The notes under the pieces were generated by a model. That model was not told the DNA's origin. It ran no database searches and worked only from the letters and a program-made list of their open reading frames with translations. Shown here piece by piece: positions 10,654-61,934 of a stretch of 64,000 bases of DNA (the first letter of the stretch is position 1; each line of letters starts with the position of its first letter). The translations under genes were made by a program, and so were the position numbers. Source of the DNA: an uncultured Syntrophomonadaceae bacterium (GTDB taxonomy: Bacteria > Bacillota > Dethiobacteria > DTU022); assembly GCA_964467475.1 (NCBI GenBank), contig CAYXQO010000008.1, positions 490-64,489 of the forward strand. The letters run 5' to 3'.

Positions 10654-12870
10654 TTAATGTGCTTGTTTTTGCTGCTGCATGATAAAGGATAAGAAGACAT
10701 GGACCAGTTCGGGGTCGAACTGGGTCCCGGCATTTCTTTCTATCTCGGTCAGCGCTTCCTTGGAGTTTGCCGCTTTTTGGTAAGGCCGTTCGTGGGTCAT
10801 TACGTCATAGGCATCGCAGATGCTTAAAATCCGGCATTCTAAGGGGATTTCTGTACCTTTTAGTCCCAGGGGGTAGCCGTTGCCGTCCCAGTGCTCGTGG
10901 TGGCTCAAGATCAAGTTGGCGATCCCGGCTAAGTCGGAGGAAGAAGAAGCAATGCGGGATCCTTTTTCCGGGTGCAGCTTCATTATTTCCCACTCTTCTT
11001 CGGTTAGCGGGCCCGGCTTGTAGAGGATATGGTCGGGAATACCTACTTTGCCCAGGTCGTGTACCCGCACGAGCAGGGCCAGATCGGAAATTTGTTTTGA
11101 ATCAAGGCTTAATTTTTCTGCGAACTTCATGCACAGCTCTTCTAAGCGCTCAATGTGCCCCTCTGTGATATAGTCTCTTTCAGCAAGGGCTGCAGTGAGA
11201 CTCTGCACTACACCGTTGCGCGCGCTTTTACTGCGATGCAGCTTATCCCTGAACATCAAATCGTCGGCTTGTTTGACCAGTCTCTTAAGCGGGATGCTGT
11301 CTTTTTCCGCCGTAGCCACTCCCATAGAAACGCTCAAGGGCAGCTCGGGGTTATGGTTGTTGTAATGGGCTACCTGGTAGCGGATTTGCCGGGCCAGGCA
11401 TTCTCCTTCGGTTTTACCCGTAAGAGGGAGGATTGCTGTAAATTCATCGCCGCCGACCCGGCCTAAAACGCCGTTGTGATCAAAGGTTTCTTTCAAGATA
11501 TCGGCGCAGATTTTTAGCAGCCGGTCGCCCGCTTCGTGGCCGATCGTATCGTTGATTAGTTTGAGCCCATCAATATCGATGGAAATAATTGTGACCGGGT
11601 AACTGGGTTCTTCTGCTAAAAATTTCAACTTGGCTTCGAAGAAAGCTCGGTTGTAAAGACCGGTCAACTGATCGTGATAACTGAGATAGTATAGTTTTTC
11701 TTCACTGTAATCAAGGGCTTCTTCCGCGGTGGTTAGTTTTTTGAGCATGCTCTCCATTTCCTGGTTTGTTTTTTTTAGTTCCTTTTCGTTCTCCGTTAAC
11801 TGATAGAAATATTCCTGGGCTTTATCAAGCAAACTGTTGATTGTCTCGGTGAGAAGGGCCATTTCGTTGTTTTTCGGAGCAGGCAGGCGGTAAGAGAGAT
11901 CCCTGTCAACTTCAACTTTGCGCAAATTGTTTTCAAGCTGCAGCATGGGTTTGTGCACATGGATATGGTTGTAAGCCAAAAAGAGCAGGGCGATCAGCAA
12001 GGAGGCCGTGCCGGCAAATAAAAATTCGGCGGTCATTTTTTCCGAGCTTCCGGTAAAAACACTAAAAGGAATATAGGAGGCCATGTGCCAGCCGGTATCT
12101 TCGATCGGCAGGTAGGCCATGTAGCCGTTTTTTTCTGCCAGGTTTATGCGGGCAACCCCGTTTTCAATATTGTCAACCTTTTTTTCACCGTATTTTTCTT
12201 CAAAAGTAACCAGTTCGCCATGTGGGTTGTATCCCAGCTTCGGGTGGGCCAGCAAGTGTCCTTCTTTGTCGATTAGGAAAGAAAATTCGCCTTCTTCCAC
12301 TTCCCGAGCAGCTTCTGCGGTTTCAATCAGGTGGTTGATTTTATCAATGGGGATATCGCCACCGACAACGCCCAGGAATTCTTTGTCCGGACAGTACACC
12401 GGGTGGGCAATAGTAAAGATTACATCATCCCGGCTGGCGTTGATAAAAGCTTCGGTGAAAACGGTATCACCTTTTTCCCTGGCCTGGTTGTACCAGGGGC
12501 GTTCGCAAAGGTCGAAACCAGGGGGTGGTTCCCAGCCGCTGGCATTGATCATCTCGTTTTCGGGAGTGCCGAAATAGATCGAGTTGAACCCATCGTTATT
12601 TTCTAAGAGGGAACGCAAGTAGAGCAATATTTCCTCATCGTCCCACTGCTGTAGAGCAATGAAGTCTCCGGCTGCCTCGATGGTATGGGTATGTTTGTTC
12701 AGCCAGCCGTTAATTTCTTCGCTTTTGGAGTGGACAGAAAGCTCCGCCGCCTTACGGGCTTGTTCCTGCAAATGCTGGTTGGTCCCATGATACTGGTAGT
12801 ACCATCCACTAAAAAAGACAATTATTAGGATGAAGGCGAGAATGTATAAGTTCCTGACCAAACGCTGCAA
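10654..12870 (-). CDS. dCache-HAMP-GGDEF-HD-GYP membrane c-di-GMP enzyme
   Basis: TM, Cache (RPWYNQA...FTEAFINA), TM, HAMP, RVGGDEF, VHDLGK, HHEHWDGNGYP. Confidence 0.93.
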   Translation of the reverse strand: MQRLVRNLYILAFILIIVFFSGWYYQYHGTNQHLQEQARKAAELSVHSKSEEINGWLNKHTHTIEAAGDFIALQQWDDEEILLYLRSLLENNDGFNSIYFGTPENEMINASGWEPPPGFDLCERPWYNQAREKGDTVFTEAFINASRDDVIFTIAHPVYCPDKEFLGVVGGDIPIDKINHLIETAEAAREVEEGEFSFLIDKEGHLLAHPKLGYNPHGELVTFEEKYGEKKVDNIENGVARINLAEKNGYMAYLPIEDTGWHMASYIPFSVFTGSSEKMTAEFLFAGTASLLIALLFLAYNHIHVHKPMLQLENNLRKVEVDRDLSYRLPAPKNNEMALLTETINSLLDKAQEYFYQLTENEKELKKTNQEMESMLKKLTTAEEALDYSEEKLYYLSYHDQLTGLYNRAFFEAKLKFLAEEPSYPVTIISIDIDGLKLINDTIGHEAGDRLLKICADILKETFDHNGVLGRVGGDEFTAILPLTGKTEGECLARQIRYQVAHYNNHNPELPLSVSMGVATAEKDSIPLKRLVKQADDLMFRDKLHRSKSARNGVVQSLTAALAERDYITEGHIERLEELCMKFAEKLSLDSKQISDLALLVRVHDLGKVGIPDHILYKPGPLTEEEWEIMKLHPEKGSRIASSSSDLAGIANLILSHHEHWDGNGYPLGLKGTEIPLECRILSICDAYDVMTHERPYQKAANSKEALTEIERNAGTQFDPELVHVFLSFIMQQQKQAH

Positions 12871-29583: not shown

Positions 29584-29754
29584 TCAACCGGTTTCCGGAA
29601 CGGCTTGAAATTCGTCTTTATCAGCACCGCAGACGGGACATTTCCAGGTATCGGGAAGGTCTTCGAAAGCAGTGCCCGGGGAAATGCCGTTATCGGGATC
29701 GCCCTTCTGGGGATCATAAGTGTAGTCGCAGAGTTCACACATGTAGCTTTGCAT
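29584..29754 (-). CDS. Rubredoxin (56 aa)
   Basis: [56 protein letters not shown]; two CxxC motifs; GGAGG RBS; below the ORF-track length cutoff. Confidence 0.96.
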
Positions 29755-30002: not shown

Positions 30003-30731
30003 TTGATGCGTGTGTGGGACATTCATCCCGGTTACTTATCCAGGCAGAATCTGCTTGGCCAACATGCTGAAATCCACGCTCTTTACAGCGTTATTTCGGG
30101 GAATAAAAAAGGTTATTCGCAGCACCCAGAAACAATGCGCTGGAAAGATAACCTAAAAGGGCTTGTGCATATCCACGAGCTTACGGTTTTAGAAATGCAG
30201 CTCCGGGGCTTCAATCATTTTAGTCCCTGCGAAAAGGGGACTGAGAATTATAGTTATCCAGGCTCAGTTAGCGACCCTGTGTATGTTGATCCACCAGCAA
30301 AGCAGATCGAAATCCTCTTTGAAAAATACCGGCAGAATGATGCTTCCCGCAGGATCCCGCTGCCCGGGAATGCTTTTGAGTTCTGGGCACATCATAAATA
30401 CTCGGTGATGGCCCGCGGCTACAACCACTACAAGGAAATCCAGGCTCATCTGCGGGGAAAAGAAAAATACCCTCTAACTGAAGCAGGTCCTTTTATCGAG
30501 CAGATTTTGAAGATCATAAAAGAGCCGGTTCCCATTAAGGGGCTTGCCAACGTAGTCGATCATCTCTGGGGTTATTTCAAAAATGAAGCTTCTATTGAAG
30601 AGAAAGAAATATACTTGCACCGGGAACCCGGGGACTTACCTCACCTGGTTAACTTTTTCTACACTCTTGCCCGGAAATATAACCGGCTTTACTTGCTGCA
30701 CTCGACAATTTTTGCAGATTTTACAGGGTAA
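30003..30731 (+). CDS. Pyrimidine-dimer DNA glycosylase-like domain fused to DUF1722-like domain
   Basis: N-terminal MRVWDIHPGYL...LLGQHAEIH...HPETMRW; C-terminal HLWGYFK...LLHSTIF. Confidence 0.7.
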   Translation: MMRVWDIHPGYLSRQNLLGQHAEIHALYSVISGNKKGYSQHPETMRWKDNLKGLVHIHELTVLEMQLRGFNHFSPCEKGTENYSYPGSVSDPVYVDPPAKQIEILFEKYRQNDASRRIPLPGNAFEFWAHHKYSVMARGYNHYKEIQAHLRGKEKYPLTEAGPFIEQILKIIKEPVPIKGLANVVDHLWGYFKNEASIEEKEIYLHREPGDLPHLVNFFYTLARKYNRLYLLHSTIFADFTG

Positions 30732-30892: not shown

Positions 30893-30933
30893 TTGACAAA
30901 CTGACAATAAATATCCTATAATTTTTATAGGAT
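30893..30933 (+). promoter_or_regulatory. sigmaA promoter of the iscS-like operon with palindromic operator over -10
   Basis: TTGACA-18-TATAAT; inverted repeat ATCCTATA-5-TATAGGAT at 30913-30933. Confidence 0.7.
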
Positions 30934-30996: not shown

Positions 30997-32193
30997 ATGA
31001 AATCAATCAACCTTGATTATATCGCGGCTACGCCGGTAGATGATGCTGTTTTACAGGTGATGCTACCCTTTTTTAAAGAAGATTATGGCAATCCCTCTAG
31101 CGGACATACTCTCGGGGAAAAACCGCGTCAAGCCCTGGAGGATGCCAGGGAGAAAGTGGGACGCCTGATTGGTGCTGAAAGCAAGCAGGTCATTTTTACT
31201 GCTTCTGCCTCGGAAGCCAACAACCTGGTAGTCAAGGGGTTGATTGCCGCGGGGAAAAAGAGAGGCAACCATATAATATCTTCTGCGATTGAGCATTTTT
31301 CTGTGCTAAACCAGCTGAAGACCCTGCAAAAAGAAGGCTTTGAGGTGACCTTGCTGCCGGTAGACCGCCACGGATTAATCGATCCACAGGCTTTAAAAGA
31401 GGCGATCACCGACCGAACTATCCTGGTTACCATTCAAACCGCTAACCCGGAGATTGGCACTATTCAACCGGTCAAGGAGCTGGCTGCAGTGGCCCGCGAA
31501 AACGAGATTCCCTTCCATACCGATGCGACTGCGGCGGCGGGTTGGATACCGATTGATGTGGATGATATGGGGGTTGACTTGCTATCCCTGGCCGGTGACC
31601 AGTTTTACGGCCCCAAGGGTGCGGGAGCCCTGTTTATGCGGAAAGGAATCAGGGTGCGGCCGCTGATAGAAGGTGGTATCCAGGAGAAAGGCTTAAGGGC
31701 AGGCACGGAGAATGTTCCCGCTATAGCGGGGCTCGGTGAAGCGGCGAAGCTGGCTTATGAAACGATGGAACCACGCACACAAAAAGTTGCTTCCTTCAGG
31801 GACCAGCTTAAAGACAGCTTGTTTAAAGAAATTCCTCATTTGCATTTAAATGGGCACCCCGAAAAGCGCCTGCCCCATAACTTGAACATTTCGGTTGAGT
31901 TTGTTGAAGGGGAGGCGCTGCTGATGCGTCTGAACATGGCCGGCATTTATGTGTCAAGCGGTTCATCCTGTACTTCACAGGCGCTTAAGTCTTCACATGT
32001 TTTGCAGGCAATCGGTGTCTCCCCGGAACTGGCCCAGGGCTCGCTGTTGCTCGCAGCCGGCAAGGATAGCAATGTAGAAGACATACCTTACATTACTGAG
32101 CAATTTTCCCAGGTTGCCGAACTGTTGCGGAAGATGTCGCCGCTTTACCATCAGTATCTGAAGGAGGGAAAGATCAATGCCAATGTACAGTGA
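30997..32193 (+). CDS. iscS: IscS/NifS-family cysteine desulfurase-like protein lacking the PLP lysine
   Basis: GNPSS, EH, NPEIGTIQP, RAGTENV, SSGSSC all present; LSLAGDQFYGPKG replaces S-x-HK-x-YGPKG. Confidence 0.88.
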   Translation: MKSINLDYIAATPVDDAVLQVMLPFFKEDYGNPSSGHTLGEKPRQALEDAREKVGRLIGAESKQVIFTASASEANNLVVKGLIAAGKKRGNHIISSAIEHFSVLNQLKTLQKEGFEVTLLPVDRHGLIDPQALKEAITDRTILVTIQTANPEIGTIQPVKELAAVARENEIPFHTDATAAAGWIPIDVDDMGVDLLSLAGDQFYGPKGAGALFMRKGIRVRPLIEGGIQEKGLRAGTENVPAIAGLGEAAKLAYETMEPRTQKVASFRDQLKDSLFKEIPHLHLNGHPEKRLPHNLNISVEFVEGEALLMRLNMAGIYVSSGSSCTSQALKSSHVLQAIGVSPELAQGSLLLAAGKDSNVEDIPYITEQFSQVAELLRKMSPLYHQYLKEGKINANVQ

Positions 32194-32596
32194 AGAAGTA
32201 ATGGAGCATTTTACAAATCCGCGCAATATCGGTGAAATTGAGAACCCGGACGGGATTGGCGAAGAGGGCAACCCGGTGTGTGGTGATATGATGAAATTTA
32301 CGATTAAGGTTAATGACGGCAAACTAGAAGATGTTAAGTATTTTACTTTTGGGTGTGGGGCTGCTATTGCCGTATCGAGCATGGTTTCAGAGATGGCCAA
32401 GGGAAAAACCCTGGAAGAAGCCTTGAACATCACCAATAAGCAGGTTGCCGAAGCGCTCGGAGGATTACCTGGTAATAAAATGCACTGTTCCAACCTGGGT
32501 GCAGATGCCTTGCACAAGGCTATCCAGGATTACATGGAAAAGCAGGGTATTCAGCCGAAAGAGCAATCATCAGAGAGGAGCGCTGGAAATGAGTGA
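32177..32596 (+). CDS. iscU: Fe-S scaffold IscU/NifU N-terminal type
   Basis: MEHFTNPRN, NPVCGD, FGCGAAIA, KMHCS (three conserved Cys). Confidence 0.95.
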   Translation: MPMYSEEVMEHFTNPRNIGEIENPDGIGEEGNPVCGDMMKFTIKVNDGKLEDVKYFTFGCGAAIAVSSMVSEMAKGKTLEEALNITNKQVAEALGGLPGNKMHCSNLGADALHKAIQDYMEKQGIQPKEQSSERSAGNE

Positions 32597-32960
32597 AAAT
32601 AAACTGAACAGGGTAAATGAAAAGGAGAGGCTTTGCAGCTGTCCGTTTTGCGACCAGCCGATTTGCCCGGACACCTCGGAAGAAATTTTTACCTGCAGAA
32701 ACGATGGCAGGTTAAAAATACACCTGGTAGACTGTGTCGGGCTCTTCTGTCCGGTACCGGTAATGCGGGCCAAAGAAGAAATAGATCAGCTGGGAGCCGG
32801 TAGTTTAATGGAGCTCGTTGCCGACGATCCGGCTTCGGCGGAAGATATACCTCGCTGGGCCAAGCGGGCAGGCCACAGCCTGGTCAAGGTGGAACAGGTT
32901 GGTGATGAGTACCATTATTATGTTTTAAAAGAAAGCGAGGATAAACCTAAAAATGGCTGA
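32589..32960 (+). CDS. TusA/SirA-family sulfurtransferase with Cys-rich N-terminal extension
   Basis: VDCVGLFCPVPV (CPxP), DDPASAEDIPRWA; N-terminal CSCPFCDQPICP...C. Confidence 0.85.
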   Translation: MSENKLNRVNEKERLCSCPFCDQPICPDTSEEIFTCRNDGRLKIHLVDCVGLFCPVPVMRAKEEIDQLGAGSLMELVADDPASAEDIPRWAKRAGHSLVKVEQVGDEYHYYVLKESEDKPKNG

Positions 32961-33327
32961 AAAGAAAAAAATTCTTTACGTGCAAACCAGCGGGACAGAT
33001 ACCCCGGAAAAACTTTATGCTCCCTTGATCCTGGCTCAAACTGCCAGGGCAATGGATGTGGAACCTGTAGTTTATTTTTTGGGCAAGGGGCTAAATAACT
33101 TAATCAAAAAGGAGGCGGAACAGGTTAAAGTTGGTGATTTTCCGAGCCTTTTTGAGATTTTGCAGCAAACAGCCGCACAGGGTGTTAAAATAATGGCCTG
33201 CCAGCAAAGCTTGCAGTTGTTCGGCGGCAAAATCAAGGAGGAAGATTTAATTAAAGAAGCAACTATTGCCGGCGCCGCCACTTTAAACGATCTGGCTCTT
33301 GATGCTGATGCAGTGCTGACCTTTTAA
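32953..33327 (+). CDS. DsrE/DsrF-like sulfur relay family protein
   Basis: YAPLILA, VYFLGKG, KIMACQQSL, GAATL, DAVLTF. Confidence 0.82.
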   Translation: MAEKKKILYVQTSGTDTPEKLYAPLILAQTARAMDVEPVVYFLGKGLNNLIKKEAEQVKVGDFPSLFEILQQTAAQGVKIMACQQSLQLFGGKIKEEDLIKEATIAGAATLNDLALDADAVLTF

Positions 33328-33404: not shown

Positions 33405-33562
33405 TGTAAAAGGCGTAGCATGGTAGGACGGCAGGGTTTGTAATGTAATTATGCCGGTTATAAAGCCGGTATATTTTTGCCCTCTAATACTCCCGTCCGG
33501 AGTATTTTATTTTTTGCCCTGGCCGTTGATCAGCGATCAACTTTCAGAGGAGGTAGTGAAAA

Positions 33563-34654
33563 GTGAAAAAGAAACTGGTACTTACGGGATTGGCACTGCT
33601 GCTGATATTAGCGGCCGGGTGCGCTGCCGAAGAAAACGGCGAAGCGGATCCGGAAGAAGCAGATGTAGAAGAAACAGCAGTGGAAGAAGAAGCGGTAGAA
33701 GAAGAGGGGGAGGTGTATGAGTTTACCCTGGCTCACTTTTTCCCGGCCGGTCACCCGGCGGAAACAGAATTGGTTCAGGGTTGGGCCGAAGAACTGGAAC
33801 AGGCCAGCGAGGGCCGGATCGAGATAACCAGTTATCCGGGGGGAACCCTTCTGGACCCGGATGATACGTACGAGGGAGTCGTTGAAGGGATTGCCGATAT
33901 TGGGCTTTCGGCCTTCTTTTACAACCGGGGCCGCTTTCCTGTGCTGGAAGTGTTTGAACTGCCCGGGATTGTTTATGAGGATTCATCTATGGCCAGTAAA
34001 GTAGCCTGGGAAGGGATTAAGGAACTGGACCCGGCTGAAATCCAGGACACAGAGCTTATGTATGTGCTTGCTACCGGCCCGGGAGATTTGTTTACCAAAG
34101 AGCCGGTAGAGAGCCTTGAAGACCTACAGGGAATGAAAATCAGGGTTGCCGGGTTAAGCGCGGAAACGCTTAACTTACTGGGCGCCGCCCCGGAAGCGAT
34201 GCCGCAAAATGAAGCGGAAGAAGCTTTGATGCGTGGCAGGGTTGACGGAAACCTGGCACCGGTTGAAGTTTTAAAAGGTTGGAACCATGCGGAGCATACC
34301 GATTACTTGACCAGGACACCTTTTCTTTACAATGCTTTGTTTTACGTAACCATGAACCAGGAGAAATGGGAGAGCCTACCTTCCGACCTGCAGGAAGTTT
34401 TTCTTGAAGTAAACGAGAGCTTTCATGAAGAAGTAGCTGCCGGCTTGTGGGACCTTCAGAATGAAGAAGCGCTTGAGTGGGCGGTTGAAGAAACCGGTCA
34501 GGAAGTAATTGAGCTTAGTGAAGAAGAAAAAGAGCGGTGGATCGAAAAGGTTCAGCCGGTCCAGGAAGATTTTAAATTTAAAATGGATGAACTGGGCCAT
34601 GATGGGGGCGAAATTCTTGATACCGTTAAACGGTTGGCCGAAGAATATCGTTAG
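33563..34654 (+). CDS. dctP: TRAP transporter substrate-binding lipoprotein
   Basis: Lipobox AAGC; YPGGTLL, EGIADIG, LQGMKIRV, RGRVDG motifs. Confidence 0.9.
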   Translation: MKKKLVLTGLALLLILAAGCAAEENGEADPEEADVEETAVEEEAVEEEGEVYEFTLAHFFPAGHPAETELVQGWAEELEQASEGRIEITSYPGGTLLDPDDTYEGVVEGIADIGLSAFFYNRGRFPVLEVFELPGIVYEDSSMASKVAWEGIKELDPAEIQDTELMYVLATGPGDLFTKEPVESLEDLQGMKIRVAGLSAETLNLLGAAPEAMPQNEAEEALMRGRVDGNLAPVEVLKGWNHAEHTDYLTRTPFLYNALFYVTMNQEKWESLPSDLQEVFLEVNESFHEEVAAGLWDLQNEEALEWAVEETGQEVIELSEEEKERWIEKVQPVQEDFKFKMDELGHDGGEILDTVKRLAEEYR

Positions 34655-34759
34655 TCCTTGCTCATGGATTTACCTTAACATGCCCGATATTGATTAACTG
34701 TTAATACTCAGCACGGCTGAGAAAAAACGATTAACTTTATAAAATGAAGGACAGATCTG

Positions 34760-35251
34760 TTGATGCAGTTATTTGAAACAATAGTGATCAAACTAAGCCG
34801 CGGCCTTGATTTTTTGGCTGGAATTATATTGGCTGCCACTGCTTTCCTGGTGGTGGCCAATATAATGGGCCGGGTTCTTTTACAGCAATCATTCCTGGTG
34901 GCCCACGAAGTGGTCGGTTTTCTCACCGCCGGTGTAATCGGCCTGGCCTTAGCCCGCTGCGCCCTGGAAAACGGACACATCTCCGTTGAATTTCTGGTAG
35001 AAAAACTGCCGAAACCGGTGCAGCGGTACATCGAGATAGCGGTAAATTTACCTGTTTTTGCTTTTCTGTTGTTTATCACATTCAACTTATTTAATTACGG
35101 TTGGCGCATTGCTGAAAGTGGAGAGGTTTCTCCGACCATCCAGCTTGCCTTTTACCCCTTTATTTACCTGGTCGGCCTTGGGTTTTTTGTGCTTTCCCTG
35201 GTAAACTTGCTGAAAATTATTAAGTTGATTGCCGGGGGTGAGCATCAATGA
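34760..35251 (+). CDS. dctQ: TRAP transporter small permease
   Basis: 4 TM; GHISVEFL motif. Confidence 0.9.
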   Translation: MMQLFETIVIKLSRGLDFLAGIILAATAFLVVANIMGRVLLQQSFLVAHEVVGFLTAGVIGLALARCALENGHISVEFLVEKLPKPVQRYIEIAVNLPVFAFLLFITFNLFNYGWRIAESGEVSPTIQLAFYPFIYLVGLGFFVLSLVNLLKIIKLIAGGEHQ

Positions 35252-36558
35252 ACCCGGAAATGGTTGGTACTATTGGTATTTTGGCATTCTTTCTATTAAT
35301 GGCTTTAAAAATTCCGATTGCCTATGTTATGGCTATAGTTGGAGTTGCCGGGTTTGGCTATTTGACCTCAACCGGGGCGGCATTTTCAATGGTTTCAGCC
35401 GAACTGTTTTCCACCTTTTCCCGTTATTCACTGAGTGTAATCCCCATGTTTGTCTTAATGGGGTTCCTTGCTTTCCATGCCGGGATGGGGGCCAGGCTTT
35501 ACGACCTGGCTTACAAACTGGCCGGCCACCTGCCGGGTGGTTTGGCGGTGGCAACTCAGGCTACCTGCGCCCTGTTTGGGGCGGTATGCGGTTCTAACAC
35601 GGCAACTGCTGCGACCATCGGGGCCATTGCCCTGCCCGAGATGCGCAAGTACAACTATAACTCTTCCCTGTCTACAGCCAGCGTGGCCGCCGGCGGCGCC
35701 CTGGGGGTATTGATCCCGCCGAGTGTGATTTTTATCGTCTACGGGATTTCCGCCGAGCAATCGGTGGGGCAGCTGTTTTTGGCCGGCATCATCCCCGGTT
35801 TTCTGCTTATGTCTCTTTACATGCTGGTTATCTACATTAATGCCAGGCGCAACCCGGAACTGGGTCCTGCGGGCCAAAAAGCCAGCTGGCGTGAGCGTTA
35901 CCTGGCCCTGGGTGGTGGTCTTTTCGAAGTTATGGTTGTTTTTGCAATATCGCTGGGCGGTCTTTTTGCAGGCTGGTTCATGCCTACGGAAGCAGGTGCG
36001 GTAGGGGTGGCCGGGGTACTCCTGGTCACGGCCTTAAAGGGGCGGATGAACTTAGCGATAATCCGTCAGTCCCTTGCCGACACCACCCGGACTACGGCGA
36101 TGATCATGCTTCTTGTAGCAGCGGCGGTAATTTTCGGGCGCTTTATGGCAGTCAGCCGCATTCCTTTTGCCATGGCCGAGTGGGCGGCGGAATTGGCCTT
36201 ACCCTCGTTCGCCGTCATTGCCCTGATTCTATTAATCTACCTGGTTCTGGGTTGCTTTATTGATGCCCTGGCTTTGATATTGCTAACAATCCCTATATTT
36301 TTACCGGTAGCGGTAGATGTTCTCGGTTACGATCCGATCTGGTTTGGGGTGATTATCGTGATGGTAGTGGCAATGGGGGTGATTACTCCCCCGGTGGGGA
36401 TGAATGTATATATTGTCAAGGGAGTGGCGGGTGATGTGCCGCTAGAGGTTATTTTTAAGGGGGTATGGCCTTTTTTATTTGCGATTATCCTGGCCCTGGC
36501 GCTTTTAATCATGTTTCCCGGTCTTGCCACCTTCTTGCCATCGCTGGTTCAATCCTAG
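35248..36558 (+). CDS. dctM: TRAP transporter large permease
   Basis: IPMFVLMG, FGAVCGS, GGALGVLIPPS, TPPVGMN. Confidence 0.95.
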   Translation: MNPEMVGTIGILAFFLLMALKIPIAYVMAIVGVAGFGYLTSTGAAFSMVSAELFSTFSRYSLSVIPMFVLMGFLAFHAGMGARLYDLAYKLAGHLPGGLAVATQATCALFGAVCGSNTATAATIGAIALPEMRKYNYNSSLSTASVAAGGALGVLIPPSVIFIVYGISAEQSVGQLFLAGIIPGFLLMSLYMLVIYINARRNPELGPAGQKASWRERYLALGGGLFEVMVVFAISLGGLFAGWFMPTEAGAVGVAGVLLVTALKGRMNLAIIRQSLADTTRTTAMIMLLVAAAVIFGRFMAVSRIPFAMAEWAAELALPSFAVIALILLIYLVLGCFIDALALILLTIPIFLPVAVDVLGYDPIWFGVIIVMVVAMGVITPPVGMNVYIVKGVAGDVPLEVIFKGVWPFLFAIILALALLIMFPGLATFLPSLVQS

Positions 36559-47067: not shown

Positions 47068-47309
47068 AATTATAGGGGTGGTGATCCGGTTTGTCAACAG
47101 TTTTTGTGTACACAGGCACCACATTTTCGAAAAAAATTTTTTAAAGGAGCTAAGCTTTGTAATTACCTATCCATTACAAGGCCGTGGGCAGGAATAAACC
47201 GGCTCCTGTCGAATTATTAAATTATAAGTTAGAGATACCCAAAAACACTGATGCCGGTGATCAATCAGGAAAAGGAAGCTTAGGCCGGCGAAAGGAGAAT
47301 CAGCTTAAT

Positions 47310-48056
47310 TTGCTATCCCTGGAGAATATAAACCTTGAGTTCCAGTCAGAAGAGAAGAAAATCCCAATCTTACATGATATCAACTTAAACTTCGAGGCCG
47401 GCAAGATGTATGCGATAACCGGGCCTAACGGCAGCGGAAAGTCCTCGGTAGTCCGGGTGGCCATGGGAATCTACAGGCATACATCCGGCCGGGTCCTTTA
47501 TAACGGGGAAGATATCAGCGAGCTTGGCATATCTGAGCGGGCCAGGAAAGGCATCGGTTATGCTTTTCAGCATCCACCCCGGTTTAAGGGAATGCCGGTC
47601 AAAGACATGCTGGAAATGGCCATGAAATACTCAGACAGCGTAAATTGCCAGGTGCTCCGCGATATTGGGCTCTGCCCGGACGAATACCTGGAGCGAACTT
47701 TGGATAACAGCTTGTCCGGCGGGGAAATCAAGCGTATTGAAATTGCCACCCTGCTGGCCCAAAATCCAAAGATGCGTATTTTTGACGAACCGGAAGCAGG
47801 CATTGATCTGTGGAGCTTTGAACAATTAATCAATGTAATCGGGGGAACCCACCGCGAAGATACTTCCACCGTGGTCATCTCGCACCAGGAGAAAATCTTA
47901 AATATGGTAGATGAAATTATCCTTATTGAAGATGGCACTGTCAGTATGCGCGGCAGCAGAGATGAAATTTGGCCCCGGATCAAAGCAAGCGCGGAGTGTT
48001 CTTGCCGTTACAATTGCCAACAGGAGGGAGAAATCTATGCTGACTGCCCTCGATAA
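47310..48056 (+). CDS. sufC: SufC-like (SmsC-type) ABC ATPase with Cys-rich tail
   Basis: GPNGSGKS, AFQHP, LSGGEIKRIE, DEPEAGID; tail CSCRYNC...C; start at TTG behind AGGAG. Confidence 0.85.
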   Translation: MLSLENINLEFQSEEKKIPILHDINLNFEAGKMYAITGPNGSGKSSVVRVAMGIYRHTSGRVLYNGEDISELGISERARKGIGYAFQHPPRFKGMPVKDMLEMAMKYSDSVNCQVLRDIGLCPDEYLERTLDNSLSGGEIKRIEIATLLAQNPKMRIFDEPEAGIDLWSFEQLINVIGGTHREDTSTVVISHQEKILNMVDEIILIEDGTVSMRGSRDEIWPRIKASAECSCRYNCQQEGEIYADCPR

Positions 48057-48954
48057 AAAACTTTTAGAAGAAGTGGCCGATCTGCACGGTGAACCGCCCG
48101 GGGCATTTAATATCCGCAAAGACGGCAAAGGTATTGAACGTCGCTCTTTAGAGGGCATTGAAATAACCCCGAAAAAAGATCAACCCGGCATTGATGTAGT
48201 GGTCGCCGAGGGAAAGGAAGGAACTGTCCACATCCCGGTAATTCTTACCGAGAATGAACTATCAGACCTGGTTTACAATCATATCGATATTGGGTCGGGG
48301 GCAAATATAACCCTGGTTGCCGGCTGCGGTATCCATAACCCCGGCTCCGGAAAGAGTCAGCACGATGGGGTCCATGAAATATATGTGCGTAAAGGGGCCC
48401 GCTTAGTTTATACCGAAAAGCATTTTGGTGAGGGCGAAGATAGCGGGGAACGGGTGCTTAATCCCAAGACCGTCCTGTATGTTGAAGAAGGGGGTTATGC
48501 TGAACTGGAACTGGTCCAGATCAGGGGGGTCGACAAAACCTCGAGAGTTACAGAGGCTGAAGTAAAAGCTGGTGGACGCCTGGTGATGTATGAACGCCTG
48601 CTTACCCACGGCGAACAATCGGCAAACTCCGACGTGGTGGTTAAACTGATGGGTGAGGAGAGCACTGCTCGCATTATTTCCCGTTCTGTAGCCCAGGACA
48701 ATTCCAGACAGAGTTTTTACCCCCGCCTTTTGGCCCACGGTCCCGGACGCGGGCATGTGGAGTGTGACTCAATCATTATGGACCATGCTACAGTACGCTC
48801 GGTTCCTGAAATTTGGGCAGAAAATGCCGAGGCTGAACTGGTCCACGAAGCAGCTATTGGTAAAATTGCCGGGGAACAGCTGACTAAACTGATGGCCCTG
48901 GGCCTTACCGAAGAAGAAGCGGAAGAGGCGATCATCAGCGGCTTCCTTAAATAA
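48037..48954 (+). CDS. Single SufB/SufD-family scaffold (SmsB-type)
   Basis: GAFNIRKDG, HIPV, GCGIHN, GHVECDSII, HEAAIGKIA. Confidence 0.88.
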   Translation: MLTALDKKLLEEVADLHGEPPGAFNIRKDGKGIERRSLEGIEITPKKDQPGIDVVVAEGKEGTVHIPVILTENELSDLVYNHIDIGSGANITLVAGCGIHNPGSGKSQHDGVHEIYVRKGARLVYTEKHFGEGEDSGERVLNPKTVLYVEEGGYAELELVQIRGVDKTSRVTEAEVKAGGRLVMYERLLTHGEQSANSDVVVKLMGEESTARIISRSVAQDNSRQSFYPRLLAHGPGRGHVECDSIIMDHATVRSVPEIWAENAEAELVHEAAIGKIAGEQLTKLMALGLTEEEAEEAIISGFLK

Positions 48955-51035: not shown

Positions 51036-51245
51036 TAGTTTTTTTAATATTTTTTTTAAAAAAATTATTGGATTATTTTACCTGCCTCCCTGTGCCCTAA
51101 ATAGAAGCAAAAGCCTGACTTACAAATTTAAACTACCGGCTTTTTGCAAAAAAAAAGAAGGTGAAAACACCTAAAAAACAGAAATTTAACTTCAAGAAAG
51201 TAGTATATTCACGAAGGAACTGTATTTTTGCAGGAGGTGCCTCTA

Positions 51246-52559
51246 GTGTCTGGAGCTGAAAAACTGGAAAGGAAGTATGTTTTGCGCCCCTGGTCGGTCC
51301 AGGGGACGATGCCTTACGATGAAATTACCGGTGGGGAAGGCTGCTGGTTCTGGAACCGGGAAGGAAAAAAATACCTGGACTTTTCCTCGCAGTGGGTGAA
51401 CACCAATATCGGACACCAGCACCCGAAAGTGGTGGAAGCGATTAAAGAGCAGGCAGAAAAGCTTTGCTTTATCGCTCCTAATTTTGGCAGTGAACCCCGG
51501 GCGAAACTGGCTGAAAAAGTTATCCGGTACACCCCGGGAGACTTAAACAAAGTATTTTTTACTTTAGGCGGTGGAGAATCGAACGATAATGCCATTAACC
51601 TGGTTCGCCAGGTAACCGGGCGCTATAAAGTGATGAGCCGCTACCGATCCTACCATGGCTCCACTCTAGGCGGGCTCAGTATAAGCGGCGATCCCAGGAG
51701 GATCTCAGCGGAACCGCTCATGCCCGGTGTAGTCCGTTTCTTCGACCCGTACTGCTACCGCTGCAGTTTCGGCCAGAGTTACCCGGGTTGCAAGCTGGAA
51801 TGCGCCGAACATGTCCGGGAAATGATGCTTTATGAAGGACCTGAAAGTATAGCTGCTGTTTTTGTCGAACCGGTAACCGGAACAAATGGTGTCTTTATCC
51901 CTCCGAAAGAATACCTGCCCCGCTTAAGAGAAATTTGTAATGAATTTGGCGTGCTGCTGGTAGCCGATGAGGTTATGTCGGGCTGGGGTCGCACCGGTGA
52001 ATGGTTTGGTGTGGATAACTGGAATGTAGTCCCTGATGTGATTACCATGGCCAAGGGAATTACTCAAGGGTACGTCCCCCTGGGAGCAATCGTGGTCAAC
52101 CAAAAAATTGCCGATTATTACGAGGATAAAATGTTCATGTACGGACTCACTTACAGCGGGCATCCCCTGGCCTGTGCCGCCGGCATAGCCACCATCGAAG
52201 TATTTGAAGAAGAAAATATCCTTGGTAATGCAAAGCAGATGGGAGAAAAGCTTTCAAGCGGCTTGCAGGAACTAAAAGATAATCATCCAGCCATCGGTGA
52301 TGTGCGCTCAATCGGGCTTTTTTCAGCGATTGAACTGGTAAAAAACCGGGAGACCAGAGACCCCCTGGCTCCCTGGAACGGGCCGGATCCGGGGATCATG
52401 GGCCGGGTCAAGGAGTGCCTTCGTGAAAAGGGCGTTTATGTTTATCTGCGCTGGAATAACCTGTTTATTGCCCCGCCGCTTTCAATTAACGAAGAAGAGC
52501 TAAAATTTGGCCTGGAGGCGGTAGACCGGTGCCTGGAGTTGGCTGACAAAGAAATCTAA
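51246..52559 (+). CDS. Class III PLP aminotransferase (omega-amino acid / taurine:pyruvate-like)
   Basis: YLDFSSQ, SYHGST, EPVTG, ADEVMSGWGRTG, MAKG, TYSGHP. Confidence 0.92.
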   Translation: MSGAEKLERKYVLRPWSVQGTMPYDEITGGEGCWFWNREGKKYLDFSSQWVNTNIGHQHPKVVEAIKEQAEKLCFIAPNFGSEPRAKLAEKVIRYTPGDLNKVFFTLGGGESNDNAINLVRQVTGRYKVMSRYRSYHGSTLGGLSISGDPRRISAEPLMPGVVRFFDPYCYRCSFGQSYPGCKLECAEHVREMMLYEGPESIAAVFVEPVTGTNGVFIPPKEYLPRLREICNEFGVLLVADEVMSGWGRTGEWFGVDNWNVVPDVITMAKGITQGYVPLGAIVVNQKIADYYEDKMFMYGLTYSGHPLACAAGIATIEVFEEENILGNAKQMGEKLSSGLQELKDNHPAIGDVRSIGLFSAIELVKNRETRDPLAPWNGPDPGIMGRVKECLREKGVYVYLRWNNLFIAPPLSINEEELKFGLEAVDRCLELADKEI

Positions 52560-52780: not shown

Positions 52781-52885
52781 AAACCTGGACGATAAAGGCA
52801 AACCTGTTGAAAAACAGGGGCGCAAAGCTAAAGGGTCTACGGCTCAACTAAAGAGCTAGGACAGCCTGGCTGCCGAAGCAGGGTT
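52781..52885 (+). promoter_or_regulatory. c-di-GMP-I (GEMM) riboswitch 1
   Basis: GGCAAACC-TGTT-GAAA-AACAGG-GG-CGCAAAGC...GCTGCCGA; G20 (52797), A47 and C92 (52873) equivalents present. Confidence 0.92.
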
Positions 52886-52962: not shown

Positions 52963-53058
52963 ACCTGACCGACAAAGGCAAACCTGTCGAAAGGCAGGGA
53001 CGCAAAGTTCAGGGTCTAAGGCTCAGTTTATGAGCTACGATAGCCTGACTGCCGAAAC
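52963..53058 (+). promoter_or_regulatory. c-di-GMP-I (GEMM) riboswitch 2 (tandem)
   Basis: GGCAAACC-TGTC-GAAA-GGCAGGG-ACGCAAAG...ACTGCCGA; G20 (52977) and C92 (53052) equivalents present. Confidence 0.93.
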
Positions 53059-53106: not shown

Positions 53107-54336
53107 GTGACAAAAAATGATTTTTTATTAAATGGTAACTTCTTTTTTCCCGCAGTGTTTTCCGGTCTAGTTTCAGCCTGGAAGAACAAAGTCTATGTTT
53201 TCTTTGCCTCGCTGATCCTGCTTTTATTTTTAAGCATACCCGCCAGGGCGGCTGTGGAAGAATTTATTGTTAAGGCTGATGATGGTGTTTACAGCAAATT
53301 TTCTTATGAAGAGCTTCTAGACTCTTACGCCCTGAAGTTGATGGGCAAAGAAGGAGCGCTCTACGAAGAGTTTGCAGCAAAAGAGGTTGTCGCCCTTAAA
53401 ATATCCGGGCACGGCTATTTTGATTACAAAGATATTCTCGATTATTATGCCGGATCTTTAAGCAACGGCGATAAGTTTGATTTGCTACAGTATGCTGGTA
53501 ACGGTAATGCCAGGCAGGCCGAATTACCGGGGAATATTGAGACGGTTTCCCCCTCCGGTGGAGAAATCCCGGCCGGTGATGCAGGTCCAGAAGGTGATAT
53601 AAAAGAGGAAAAAGATGAGGAATTGGGGTTAGATGAAAGATCTGGTAATGAAAAAGAAAAGAATGATAATGACAAAGAGGAGGAACGGGAAGAAGAAAGC
53701 AGCCGGGATGAAGAATCTGATGATGAAGGAAGTAACGAAGAGAAAGAAAATAAAGAAGAGGAAATAGAAGAGGAGGAGAAAGAAGGGGAAGATAAAGAAG
53801 AAGAAAATAAAAATGAAGATGATTCGGAACCGGGATCATCCGGTGAAGAAACTCAGATCCTGGGGCAGGCTGAAGTCAGCTTGGATGAGGCTGTAAGCTG
53901 GGCCCAATCCAACAATGCTCATCAAAGATATGTAGATGCTGCCCCTTATTACTGGGAGTTTGGTGAAAAGACCGGGATTCGCCCGGAAGTACTTTATGCT
54001 CAGGCGGCGTACGAAACCGGGTTTGGGCGTTTTGGCGGAATTGTTCCGGCGGAGTACAATAACTGGGCAGGTATCAAAAAAGGCGGGGTTAATGGTGACG
54101 AGCCCGAAGACCATGAAGAATTTGCCTCTCCTGAAGACGGGGTCAGAGCTCATTTTAACCATATGGGTGCCTATGTCGGAATTTCTCCGGTTGGTGAAAC
54201 CCACGACCGCTATGACTCTGCTACCCGGATGTCCTGGGCCGGAAAGGTGGAAACAGTTGAGGATTTAAGCGGTAAGTGGGCCCCTTCTGATTCATACCAC
54301 GAACGCATTGTGGAGATGATTGACGAAATGAAATAA
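53107..54336 (+). CDS. Secreted glucosaminidase (GH73-like) with uncharacterised N-domain and acidic linker
   Basis: Signal peptide; E/K/D-rich linker; RPEVLYAQAAYETGFG...NNWAGIK...EDGVRAH. Confidence 0.85.
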   Translation: MTKNDFLLNGNFFFPAVFSGLVSAWKNKVYVFFASLILLLFLSIPARAAVEEFIVKADDGVYSKFSYEELLDSYALKLMGKEGALYEEFAAKEVVALKISGHGYFDYKDILDYYAGSLSNGDKFDLLQYAGNGNARQAELPGNIETVSPSGGEIPAGDAGPEGDIKEEKDEELGLDERSGNEKEKNDNDKEEEREEESSRDEESDDEGSNEEKENKEEEIEEEEKEGEDKEEENKNEDDSEPGSSGEETQILGQAEVSLDEAVSWAQSNNAHQRYVDAAPYYWEFGEKTGIRPEVLYAQAAYETGFGRFGGIVPAEYNNWAGIKKGGVNGDEPEDHEEFASPEDGVRAHFNHMGAYVGISPVGETHDRYDSATRMSWAGKVETVEDLSGKWAPSDSYHERIVEMIDEMK

Positions 54337-55370: not shown

Positions 55371-55473
55371 AACCTGACCGAGAAGGGCAAACCTGTTGAA
55401 AGGCAGAGGGCGCAAAGCTATAGGGCCTAAGGCTTTATCCAAAGCTAAGGCAGCCTGGCTGACGAAGCAGGTT
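55371..55473 (+). promoter_or_regulatory. c-di-GMP-I-class riboswitch 3 (variant: C92A and a 1-nt P2 insertion)
   Basis: GGGCAAACC-TGTT-GAAA-GGCAG-A-GGG-CGCAAAGCTATAGGGCC...GCTGACGA. Confidence 0.85.
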
Positions 55474-55523: not shown

Positions 55524-57092
55524 ATGAGCAGGGCGATGTGGCGTAAAAAAAAGCGCAGAAAAAAAATCAAACTTAATCCCACTATCTTGGTCGGCTTTGC
55601 CACCGTAGTGCTGGTTGCAACTGTACTGGCTCTGGTGTTAACGGACAGTTTTGGGGTAGCTTCTTCACTGCGCCAGGTATTTGCCACCAGCAGTGTAGAT
55701 ATGGTTGATGAAGACGGAACCGAAGTGATTGACGGGGACTATACCATAGATTCTCCCGGCGTGAGACTGGAAGATGTGCGTATTACAGGTGATTTGCATC
55801 TAGCTTCCGGTATTGGCGATGGGGAAGTGGATTTGGTCGACGTTACCGTGGAAGGAGCAGTCCTGGTCCAGGGTGGCGGGGTCAAATCTATTTTTATGCT
55901 CAACTGTGATTTTGCGGAAGTCAAGGTAAACAGGCCTGACGGGCGAGTGCGTTTGGTCGCCTCCGGTGAAACAATTATCGACCAGGTCAGCCTGGAGACA
56001 GGAACAAGAGTGGTGGAAAACCTTTCAGGTGGAACAGACGGCATCCGCTCTGTAGAGGTTAAGACCGATGAAAAAATTGAACTCGGCGGAGAATTTGAAA
56101 CGATTAAAGTAGCGGTGCAGGATGCCAAAGTAGTCATAGACAGTGAGAAAATAGAGCATTTGCGAGTAGACAGCAATGCTTCCGGATGCACTTTTGAATA
56201 TCCGGATGGTATGGTGATTGAGAATATGCGCCTTCAAGGAACTACTTATCTTTTTGGTCGCGCAGAAGTAAATCAGGCCCTTATTTCGGCTTCCGGGGTT
56301 TCGGAATTGGAAGGCAATTTCAACCAGCTCAGGGTGACCTCTGAAGCCGGTAAATTTGAATTGATCGAAGGGTCATATTTTAAAGAATTAGATGTAGCCA
56401 AGGATGCTCTGAACAATGTTTTCAGTGCAGGGGAAGATGTGATTATTGATTACCTGGTTTTAAACGAGGCTATCACCATGCAAGGTGCCGGCACGATTGA
56501 AAGTGTCCTGGTGAATGCTGCCGGTTCTACCCTGGAACAAATCCCTGAAGAAATCGAGTTTACCGGAGAAGTAAGTATAATTATTGACGGTCACGAGATA
56601 TCAAGCCCGGAAATGCTTAAAGCTTTGCTTGAACATGGTGATCCCCATTATACTACAGCGGATACCGCTGATGTGGGGATTGAAGAAAGCGAACCTGAAC
56701 CCGATCCCGAACCTGATCCGGAGCCTCCAGAAGAAGCGGAGTCGGAAGAAGAGCCTGAACCTGAAGTTGAATCAGACGATGAAGGTGTTGAAGAAGAGGA
56801 TAGCGATGTTGCTGCCGGCGGTGAAGGCGATGAAGAAAGGGAAACGATCCCAGACTTTGCATTAGACATTGTGATTCCGAGCCAGGAAGAAAGAGACCGG
56901 TTGTCGTTGCATGGTAAAAACTTGGTTTATATCTCTTTGCAAACTGACAACCCGGAAGAATATATAGTAGTGATACCGGGACTGGAAATAAGGTACTTAG
57001 AAGATGTGCAACTGTTTTACGGGGTAGTCGATGAAAGCGTGGAAGAAGCTGCTTTAAAAGAAGATCTTACTGTCCAAAGTAGGAATGAATAA
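55524..57092 (+). CDS. Membrane-anchored surface protein with S-layer-associated beta-solenoid-like domain and acidic Pro/Glu linker
   Basis: Basic N-terminus plus TM; GDYTI...GIGDGEVDL..VTVEG.V.V.GGG..SI repeats; EPEPDPEPDPEP tract. Confidence 0.72.
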   Translation: MSRAMWRKKKRRKKIKLNPTILVGFATVVLVATVLALVLTDSFGVASSLRQVFATSSVDMVDEDGTEVIDGDYTIDSPGVRLEDVRITGDLHLASGIGDGEVDLVDVTVEGAVLVQGGGVKSIFMLNCDFAEVKVNRPDGRVRLVASGETIIDQVSLETGTRVVENLSGGTDGIRSVEVKTDEKIELGGEFETIKVAVQDAKVVIDSEKIEHLRVDSNASGCTFEYPDGMVIENMRLQGTTYLFGRAEVNQALISASGVSELEGNFNQLRVTSEAGKFELIEGSYFKELDVAKDALNNVFSAGEDVIIDYLVLNEAITMQGAGTIESVLVNAAGSTLEQIPEEIEFTGEVSIIIDGHEISSPEMLKALLEHGDPHYTTADTADVGIEESEPEPDPEPDPEPPEEAESEEEPEPEVESDDEGVEEEDSDVAAGGEGDEERETIPDFALDIVIPSQEERDRLSLHGKNLVYISLQTDNPEEYIVVIPGLEIRYLEDVQLFYGVVDESVEEAALKEDLTVQSRNE

Positions 57093-57116
57093 AGCTGATT
57101 GACCGGAGGTGCGCCG

Positions 57117-61253: not shown

Positions 61254-61934
61254 ATGATCACTTTACTAAAAGTAAATATCAAAAAGGTGTTGCTTATAAC
61301 AGCTGCTTTGACCTTGGCTCTTTCTTTTAAAGGGGATGTATATGCTGGTGAGGGGTTAAAGCTTACAGCAACTGAAGATGAAGGAAAACCTGGTGAGCAG
61401 GTTGTGATTGAAATAAATGCAGAAAACGCTGCAGGGACAGAAGGTGGACAGTTCTTGCTTAACTTTGACCAGGACTTGCTTGATCCAGTAGCCGCTGATT
61501 CCGGTCAGCTTGTTGAGGATGCGGAAAGCAACTTGTTTATGGTGAATAAAGAATATGGCGAAGGTCAGCTAAAATTCATGTGGGTTACTGCCCTGGCAGA
61601 TACCGCAGATTCTGGAACTGTTTGCGAGATAACCTTTGATTTGCTTGGTGAAGGCACCACAGCCCTTGAATTTACAGAGATCGTAGTCTCTCCAGATGAT
61701 TTTACTGTAGCCGAGGCAGTTTCGGGGAAGGTAAGAATTGACGATGCGGGGGTGGATAAGGAGGAAAATGAAGAACCTGAACAACCTGAAGAAGATAACA
61801 GGGAAGAAGAGGTGGCTGCCGCTGAAGCAGAAACTAATGGTACAGCGCTGGTTATAGGACTGATTGTTGTAGCAGCGCTGGCAGCAGTCGGTTATGTGGC
61901 TTTCCGGAAATTCAAAAAGTCCGCAAAATATTAG
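61254..61934 (+). CDS. Membrane-anchored single-cohesin protein
   Basis: GKPGEQVVIEI...GGQFLLNFD...GQLKFMW...SGTVCEITFD; acidic linker; C-terminal TM plus RKFKK. Confidence 0.82.
   Translation: MITLLKVNIKKVLLITAALTLALSFKGDVYAGEGLKLTATEDEGKPGEQVVIEINAENAAGTEGGQFLLNFDQDLLDPVAADSGQLVEDAESNLFMVNKEYGEGQLKFMWVTALADTADSGTVCEITFDLLGEGTTALEFTEIVVSPDDFTVAEAVSGKVRIDDAGVDKEENEEPEQPEEDNREEEVAAAEAETNGTALVIGLIVVAALAAVGYVAFRKFKKSAKY

Follow-up and report, generated by a model that had tools for sequence, protein, structure and literature searches.

A lysine-less IscS encoded with IscU, TusA and DsrE in a soda-lake Syntrophomonadaceae bacterium may receive sulfur independently of cysteine

We identified a four-gene operon in a 64-kb stretch of contig CAYXQO010000008.1 of an uncultured Syntrophomonadaceae bacterium (the window, i.e. 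the whole stretch of DNA that was analysed) that encodes an IscS-type protein without the lysine that binds pyridoxal 5'-phosphate (PLP), an IscU scaffold, a TusA-like sulfur carrier and a DsrE-like protein. The lysine-less IscS has lost several active-site residues, is under purifying selection, and belongs to a group of proteins whose genes are linked to tusA and dsrE in several phyla. Our preferred reading, to which we assign a probability of about 55%, is that the operon serves cysteine-independent delivery of sulfur to the IscU scaffold. The genes and their candidate transcription signals are located as follows.

30893-30922, + strand: sigma-70-type promoter candidate TTGACA-18 nt-TATAAT
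30997-32193, + strand: lysine-less iscS (misS-like), 398 amino acids, class-V aminotransferase fold of the type I IscS/NifS kind
32177-32596, + strand: iscU/misU scaffold, PF01592 (NifU_N) at E=2.1e-47
32589-32960, + strand: tusA-like sulfur carrier, 123 amino acids, PF01206 at E=1.2e-22
32589-32720, + strand: N-terminal extension of TusA, residues 1-44, with C16, C18, C21, C26 and C36 in the pattern CxCPxCDxxICP...C
32953-33327, + strand: dsrE-like, 124 amino acids, PF02635 at E=7.1e-20
33450-33473 and 33486-33506, + strand: two intrinsic-terminator-like hairpins

The four genes were read as an operon because of their translational overlaps, one shared consensus promoter and the terminators. 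Overlaps of 17 nt (iscS/iscU), 8 nt (iscU/tusA) and 8 nt (tusA/dsrE), all between genes on the same strand, bear out the tight packing described in the first-pass annotation of this DNA. The iscS start codon is preceded by AAGGAG 8 nt 5' of the ATG, and the N-terminus MKSINLDY is also that of its homologs; the true start of tusA is the ATG at 32589, as opposed to the TTG at 32445 in the mechanically called open reading frame (ORF). The promoter candidate, located 75 nt 5' of iscS, is defined by its 12/12 consensus match only, and such sites are not more frequent across the region than expected from shuffled sequence. Downstream of dsrE, the two hairpins are pattern matches only and likely mark the operon end. 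An Rfam scan of the iscS 5' leader gave no regulatory RNA match near the operon.

Residues of the lysine-less IscS were assigned by direct alignment to E. coli IscS, fetched from NC_000913. GAC-CAG at 31597-31602 encodes Asp201-Gln202 within SLAGDQFYGPKG, and these two residues occupy the positions of E. coli His205-Lys206. The segment HTDATAAAG aligns with HVDATQSVG, which places Ala179 at the position of Gln183 (E. coli numbering), while Cys325 in the loop SSGSSCTS corresponds to E. coli Cys328. The first-pass annotation had thus correctly recognized Asp-Gln in place of the PLP-binding His-Lys, DATAAAG in place of DAxQxxG, and an intact persulfide Cys loop. Further replacements beyond those are Arg354 by Leu351, Asn155 by Pro151, Ser203 by Ala199, and Thr12 by Ala11; in addition to Cys325, His100 (E. 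coli His104) and Asp176 (Asp180) are kept. His104, Asp180, Gln183, Lys206, and Cys328 of E. coli IscS are all essential to its activity (PMC9978102); two of these five are gone here together with the substrate-site Arg. Because both Lys206 and Gln183 are lost, as are Arg354 and Asn155, the protein is almost certainly unable to work as a PLP-dependent cysteine desulfurase, as far as can be judged from its sequence. Its family membership is evident from the match to PF00266 (Aminotran_5, E=5.8e-69 over residues 4-334) and from PDB matches to IscS and NFS1 at E<=1e-88; its scores are under the NCBIfam cut-offs for NifS (469.8 versus 530.75 bits) and IscS (393.4 versus 548 bits).

We rejected a sequencing or assembly error that hides His-Lys, and likewise a decaying pseudogene, as having a negligible chance, because the assemblies agree, the homologs keep Asp-Gln, selection is purifying, and neither the reading frame nor the Cys loop is broken. 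The site is spanned by contigs of four independent metagenome runs from soda or salt lakes, none of which shows a variant at 31597-31602. All of the best 120 homologs among 5.8 billion proteins (66-82% identity) have Asp-Gln at this site; in each of the 120, Ala also stands in for Gln183 and the Cys loop is unbroken. The ratio of nonsynonymous to synonymous substitution rates (dN/dS) of the lysine-less iscS against orthologous loci is 0.04-0.05. Across all four genes, compared with four orthologous loci, dN/dS is 0.02-0.15 where calculable, with saturated synonymous sites, and the proportion of nonsynonymous differences (pN) is 0.06-0.24.

The genomes nearest to the lysine-less IscS are Syntrophomonadaceae and Bacillota metagenome-assembled genomes (MAGs) from soda-lake sediments. 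The window sequence also comes from soda-lake sediment metagenomes, in accordance with the sulfidic habitat considered in the first-pass annotation. The best solved match is a series of lysine-containing desulfurase structures (9WEW and others, E=3e-125), followed by Archaeoglobus fulgidus IscS2. The entries 9WEW, 9WEP, 9WER, 9WF8, 9WFB, 9WFE, and 9WFY are point variants of one 406-amino-acid 'cysteine desulfurase' with His-Lys present. Several positions at which they vary (DHI/DHA-ATTP, IGH/IMH-SNNE, DAAQ/DAVQ/DAAP, SFT/SFS-AHK, and VRF/VVF) lie on or beside active-site columns that separate the lysine-containing from the lysine-less group.

Loss of the lysine extends well beyond the nearest relatives. 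When the closest relatives were clustered at 50% identity, the lysine was absent from 22 of 150 representatives, in which His-Lys is replaced by NQ, ND, QQ, SA, HT, HR, or other pairs. An alignment of 223 relatives, grouped by presence of K in the Lys206 column, contained 167 lysine-containing and 56 lysine-less sequences. The lysine-less state goes with loss of Gln183, Arg354, Asn155, His205, and Thr12, and the Lys206/Gln183/Arg354 triad is replaced in the 56 lysine-less relatives. It is very unlikely that the window protein is still an enzyme that binds PLP or pyridoxamine 5'-phosphate (PMP) non-covalently and catalyses another reaction, or desulfuration with another base. Such a role would agree with the Asp180 and His104 equivalents (Asp176 and His100 in the window), which are invariant even in the lysine-less proteins, and with the PMP or PLP contained in crystals of A. 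fulgidus IscS2 (PMC8918507). It is at odds with the non-equivalent side chains now present at five pocket positions, that of the substrate-carboxylate Arg included, and with the variable residue at the Lys position (Q, D, V, R, S, or T across the lysine-less clade), unlike a conserved alternative catalytic residue. Moreover, the A. fulgidus protein, even as the D199K variant, was reported without gain of normal PLP chemistry (PMC8918507).

A phylogeny of lysine-less IscS, proposed in the first-pass annotation as a check, upheld their clustering but not an exact split. In a neighbour-joining (NJ) tree, which included the 'ND' relatives of A. fulgidus IscS2 and left out the A. fulgidus sequence itself, 55 of the 56 lysine-less sequences form one clan free of lysine-containing members, and the lysine-less state requires 2-3 changes versus ~50 with shuffled labels. 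Strict monophyly, favoured by the NJ point tree, was not retained: the exact split received a bootstrap of 3/100, and 0/100 after the 15 most discriminating columns were dropped. Since this bootstrap is weak, we claim only strong clustering of the lysine-less sequences. The lysine-less state likely had few origins, mostly in one old clade, although this is not proven.

Synteny separates the two groups sharply. Among 80 loci in species-representative genomes, searched for tusA and dsrE with iterated profiles, one or both genes are adjacent to iscS at 23 of the 29 lysine-less loci, while neither was found beside any of the 51 lysine-containing loci. The six lysine-less loci without tusA or dsrE comprise two that are cut by contig ends and four from Endomicrobiia, which have Ser-Val (SV) at the His-Lys position. 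After filtering by flank length, the counts are 11/13 for lysine-less and 0/31 for lysine-containing loci (Fisher p=1e-8, uncorrected for relatedness). Residues at the His-Lys position and gene arrangements are distributed over lineages as follows.

Syntrophomonadaceae, DQ: iscS-iscU-tusA-dsrE
Dehalococcoidia, NQ: iscS-iscU-dsrE-tusA
Bathyarchaeia, ND: tusA-iscS-iscU
Thermoplasmata, ND or NE: (tusA-)dsrE-iscS
Actinomycetota, QQ: dsrE-iscS-iscU(-tusA)

Abbreviating tusA, dsrE, iscS and iscU as T, D, S and U, the order is S-U-T-D in Bacillota, S-U-D-T in Chloroflexota, T-D-S(-U) in Archaea, D-S-U(-T) in Actinomycetota, and T-S-U in Bathyarchaeia and Ferroglobus. Gene order thus differs between lineages, and the linkage has therefore been kept through rearrangements. 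For the converse search, an alignment of the DsrE subfamily was run against metagenome contigs, and 33 of the loci found had 1.5 kb or more of flanking sequence on either side. An IscS-like gene is present within 2.6 kb at 30 of these, and 29 of the 30 (29/33 of all loci) are lysine-less; tusA is present at 31/33. The most frequent orders are T-D-S (15 loci), S-U-T-D (8), and T-D-S-U (5). The co-occurrence that the first-pass annotation had asked to be checked was thus recovered from both directions, and the link of TusA and DsrE to lysine-less IscS is strongly supported by synteny that is conserved, and rearranged, across phyla. That annotation had suggested a bacterial iron-sulfur (Fe-S) assembly unit supplied with sulfur by TusA and DsrE; its TusA/DsrE link stands, but the module is not purely bacterial, and the window represents one branch of a module that is commoner in Archaea.

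Cultured archaea carry the module as well. Archaeoglobus neptunius (L165) has tusA-dsrE-iscS-iscU with an intact dsrE of 119 amino acids, and Ferroglobus placidus has tusA-iscS-iscU, the iscS being lysine-less in both. In Geoglobus acetivorans (CP087714, L166 482-5612), genes for a SepCysS-like protein and DUF169, thiI, tusA, lysine-less iscS, and iscU stand in a row; the SepCysS-like gene encodes a PLP enzyme with an SGHKS motif, and persulfide-consuming enzymes hence cluster with the module in this species. A dsrE homolog annotated with 94 amino acids lies 10 bp 5' of iscS2 in A. fulgidus (AE000782, L081 5635-5991). Its homology to full-length DsrE extends for 54 nt 5' of the annotated ATG, this stretch is preceded by a stop codon and by no start codon, and the dsrE of A. 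fulgidus DSM 4304 looks N-terminally disrupted. The A. fulgidus tusA is located 6 kb from iscS2, beside a pyridine-nucleotide disulfide oxidoreductase gene.

These neighbourhoods also bear on an alternative function as a general sulfur-relay hub, in which lysine-less IscS is a docking platform and persulfide carrier that shares sulfane sulfur with TusA and DsrE among several acceptors. The acceptors would be ThiI, SepCysS, MnmA-type, or molybdenum cofactor (Moco) enzymes, with IscU as an optional client or with its cluster needed by the relay. We consider this explanation unlikely, yet the most serious of those competing with cysteine-independent delivery to IscU. It accounts for the absence of iscU from 15 of the 33 loci (those with T-D-S) and for the gene row of Geoglobus, and E. 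coli IscS serves as a hub for exactly such partners (PMC11302665). It is less easily reconciled with iscU being translationally coupled between iscS and tusA, both in the window and in 12/12 Syntrophomonadaceae loci with enough sequence, and Pfam scans found no thiolation enzyme gene among the window ORFs that they covered.

The three partner proteins have the residues expected of a scaffold and two sulfur carriers. In the IscU translation, all cluster residues are present (Cys35, Asp37, Cys60, His103, and Cys104), with LPGNK instead of LPPVK, and its score of 196.3 bits is over the 187.9 cut-off of TIGR03419 (NifU_clost). TusA has the two-layer alpha/beta domain of its family (PF01206, 79.9 bits versus a cut-off of 28.6). 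Its catalytic Cys54 in GLFCPVP aligns with the CPxP motif of E. coli TusA (GLRCPEP), and an extra Cys49 (DCVGLFCP) is located five residues before it; both cysteines (DCxGLxCP) are found in 21/21 module-linked TusA sequences. The closest solved relative of this domain is E. coli TusA (1DCJ/3LVJ), which was also crystallised on IscS. The protein stays under the NCBIfam equivalog cut-offs for TusA (55.9 versus 78 bits), YedF (43.3 versus 79), and YeeD (34.7 versus 147.5). Its N-terminal extension has no Pfam match, and the five cysteines in it are kept in 13/13 orthologs from Syntrophomonadaceae, whereas the TusA partners of Archaea, Chloroflexota, and Actinomycetota lack the extension. With five cysteines in the extension plus Cys49 and Cys54, TusA was aptly called Cys-rich in the first-pass annotation, and the extension is a possible Zn or Fe-S site.

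DsrE is a clear member of PF02635 (71.8 bits versus a cut-off of 22.7) that falls under the equivalog cut-offs for DsrE2 (39 versus 210 bits) and TusC (24 versus 94 bits). Its single cysteine, Cys83 (ACQQS), is invariant in 8/8 aligned bacterial and archaeal sequences and present in 17/17 of a further set. The N-terminus KILYVQTSG is likewise invariant, the alignment has 45 invariant columns, and in it the window protein shares 54-57% identity with those from Archaea and Actinomycetota. The closest structure is the uncharacterised 3MC3. The operon contains no second DsrE-type gene, i.e. no DsrF/H or TusB/C partner.

From these features we infer the following route. The lost residues, the purifying selection on the genes and the linkage to tusA and dsrE are observed; inactivity of this particular IscS, contacts among the proteins, the direction in which sulfur moves, its source and Fe-S clusters as the product belong to the inferred part. 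Lysine-less IscS appears to have preserved the fold of IscS, its surfaces for dimerisation and for partners, and the mobile loop with Cys325, and it would act not as an enzyme but as a recipient of persulfide and a partner of the scaffold. It probably cannot make its own persulfide because the residues for the PLP Schiff base and for cysteine binding are lost. Instead, DsrE (via Cys83) and TusA (via Cys54) would acquire sulfane sulfur that does not come from the cysteine pool, with polysulfide, elemental sulfur, persulfides, or sulfide after an oxidative capture step as candidate sources. TusA would dock on lysine-less IscS as E. coli TusA does on IscS and hand its sulfur to Cys325. The E. coli TusA-IscS complex, in which the two active cysteines are 4 Å apart (PMC11302665), provides a physical precedent for this docking. 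Lysine-less IscS would then pass the sulfur to IscU and may also give the fourth cysteine ligand of the nascent [2Fe-2S] cluster. In a broader and more tentative form, to which we give somewhat less than even odds, TusA, DsrE, and lysine-less IscS constitute an ancient, widespread and hitherto undescribed sulfur-supply module of strict anaerobes of both domains that loads the IscS Cys loop with environmental sulfane sulfur instead of sulfur derived from cysteine.

Among the closest known systems is IscS2-IscU of A. fulgidus (AF0564/AF0565; 4EB5, 4HVK, 4R5F). It was reported that IscS2 is inactive as a desulfurase and contributes a Cys ligand to the cluster on IscU (PMC8918507, PMC7585200). It shares the type I IscS fold with the window protein (match at E=1.5e-111), and in the sequence taken from the PDB alignment (SSNDIYGPKG / DATASVG / GTLLLTLGR) the PLP-binding lysine is replaced by Asp, Gln183 by Ala, and Arg354 by Leu, in line with the similar loss of the lysine stated in the first-pass annotation. 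The Cys loop is kept, iscU is directly downstream, and the dsrE homolog is directly upstream, the corresponding position in A. neptunius being occupied by tusA-dsrE. The window differs in its bacterial, Syntrophomonadaceae-like host, in the order S-U-T-D instead of T-D-S-U, in Asp-Gln instead of Asn-Asp at His-Lys, in the additional loss of Asn155, and in the five-cysteine N-terminal extension of TusA, which sets it apart from Archaea. As summarised in reviews, the published A. fulgidus work makes no mention of the neighbouring DsrE/TusA. Lysine-less IscS is thus already known from A. fulgidus and as IscS1 of Methanosarcina acetivorans; no sequence matching the latter's IscS1-IscU1 (MA0808/MA0807) was among the proteins retrieved. 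In the searchable full-text literature we found no paper that joins TusA or DsrE to a lysine-less IscS or to IscU, and no description of bacterial lysine-less members, although prior mention elsewhere is possible.

Free sulfide is the proposed sulfur source of A. fulgidus IscS-IscU (PMC8918507), and the window proteins might likewise build clusters directly from free sulfide and Fe2+, with lysine-less IscS giving a Cys ligand only. TusA and DsrE would then act downstream, removing sulfur or clusters, or would be sulfane-sulfur buffers that shield the machinery in a polysulfide-rich habitat. The soda-lake sediment habitat is compatible with this explanation, and both the minimal ISC system (MIS) and SMS systems can use sulfide (PMC13066941, PMC12192291). 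We nevertheless regard it as improbable: it leaves unexplained why linkage to TusA and DsrE is specific to the lysine-less IscS and absent from all 51 active-type loci, and an IscS that cannot generate persulfide from cysteine has no sulfur to pass on downstream unless it is loaded otherwise.

Several points weigh against cysteine-independent delivery to IscU by TusA and DsrE. In E. coli, sulfur canonically passes from IscS to TusA and on to the DsrE homologs, opposite to the direction proposed here, which favours direct sulfide use. TusA and DsrE carry sulfane (S0) sulfur, and it is not obvious why Fe-S assembly would require them where free sulfide is abundant. About half of the archaeal modules, those with the order T-D-S (15 of 33 loci), have no adjacent iscU, and Fe-S assembly is therefore perhaps not the sole output; together with the thiI and SepCysS-like neighbours in Geoglobus, this is why the core function may lie in relaying sulfur generally and not in Fe-S assembly. 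Endomicrobiia are the sole lineage among the loci examined that has lysine-less IscS and breaks the association: at their four loci (L029, L033, L035, and L040), which have a DAVSACG or DAVCACG motif, no tusA or dsrE lies within 6 kb of iscS, and iscU is adjacent in three and was not detected at the fourth (L029). As the lysine-less sequences cluster in the tree, the linked loci are not independent observations, and the tusA/dsrE association may go back to one ancestral event. None of the RNA runs searched contains the gene. Finally, the check for a second, canonical IscS advised in the first-pass annotation covered the 64-kb window only, and a canonical IscS, SufS or NifS may be encoded elsewhere in the genome; within the window, no other class-V desulfurase was found by tblastn or by Pfam scans of every ORF of 90 or more amino acids, and a class-III aminotransferase (51228-52559) is the sole other PLP enzyme.

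The operon is also close to MIS (MisS-MisU) of anaerobic Archaea and Bacteria, which is reviewed as the least studied Fe-S system (PMC13066941). Both have a two-gene core of IscS-like and IscU-like proteins without HscAB, IscA, Fdx, or IscR, the window IscU is of the clostridial NifU type, and a SufC/SufB-like pair coexists. The flanking genes are unrelated. Directly upstream (30003-30731, +) is a gene for a pyrimidine-dimer glycosylase domain (Pyr_excise) fused to DUF1722, preceded by a rubredoxin gene (29584-29754, -), and downstream (33563-36558, +) are genes for the tripartite ATP-independent periplasmic (TRAP) transporter proteins DctP, DctQ, and DctM. MIS has been described with an active cysteine desulfurase (PMC12192291, PMC13066941), whereas in the window the desulfurase residues are gone and two sulfur-carrier genes are added.

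Two sulfur-relay systems use related proteins. The E. coli IscS-TusA-TusBCD relay for tRNA 2-thiouridine involves the same families (IscS, TusA, and DsrE/TusD) and a conserved CPxP cysteine, but E. coli IscS is active and donates to TusA, and TusD is part of the TusBCD heterohexamer. The TusA/DsrE3 cascades of sulfur oxidisers (sHdr, rDsr) likewise have neighbouring genes for TusA and for a DsrE-type protein with a single cysteine, both of which function as persulfide or thiosulfonate carriers (PMC11094781). Such cascades supply complexes for dissimilatory sulfur oxidation, while the partner in the window is the lysine-less IscS with IscU; no shdr, dsr, tusB, tusC, tusE, or mnmA gene is present here with the operon.

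The window's only other Fe-S assembly genes are two overlapping ones.

47184-48056: SufC-like ABC ATPase
47911-48954: SufBD-core protein

Both proteins are divergent, with scores under the NCBIfam cut-offs for SufC, SufB, and SmsB, and no sufS, sufE, sufU, or sufD accompanies the pair (47184-48954), which makes it a second Fe-S pair without a desulfurase. It resembles the SMS type, pairs of which were shown to use sulfide (PMC12192291).

Elsewhere in the window, genes for cyclic di-GMP (c-di-GMP) signalling are dense. Proteins combining PAS or Cache sensors with GGDEF and HD-GYP-type (HD_5) domains are encoded at 3146-4933, 4969-6870, and 10654-12870. Rfam detected three c-di-GMP-I riboswitch aptamers (66-84 bits): those at 52788-52878 and 52967-53056 stand in tandem before a glucosaminidase gene (53107-54336), and that at 55376-55466 precedes a 522-amino-acid ORF (55524-57092), which is followed by an amidase/SH3/glucosaminidase gene (57099-58973). 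Because these riboswitches precede their genes, the cell-wall hydrolases appear to be under c-di-GMP control. The product of 981-2885 combines a methyl-accepting chemotaxis signalling domain with an OpuAC glycine-betaine-binding domain in one protein, possibly a chemoreceptor for compatible solutes that would fit a soda or salt lake host. Adjacent genes at 60129-61136 and 61254-61934 encode cohesin-domain proteins, with local GC down to ~44%.

The way in which A. fulgidus IscS-IscU assembles [2Fe-2S] clusters in the absence of desulfurase activity has been reviewed as unsolved (PMC8918507). The lysine-less arrangement is not an archaeal oddity, and its linkage points to TusA and one particular DsrE subfamily as concrete candidates for the sulfur donors. 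With these donors named, the question of where lysine-less IscS-IscU obtains its sulfur is now directly testable with four small soluble proteins, and cultured carriers of the module are at hand in A. neptunius, Ferroglobus placidus, and Geoglobus acetivorans. Annotators are warned that 'cysteine desulfurase family protein' is the current name of hundreds of proteins that are probably unable to desulfurate cysteine. If the broader form of our reading is correct, it would answer how an A. fulgidus-type IscS-IscU gets its sulfur, and the five-cysteine TusA extension would add a metal or cluster site to the module in soda-lake Bacillota. The module would then constitute a third route of sulfur entry to Fe-S assembly, and possibly to thiolation, besides cysteine desulfurases and free sulfide.

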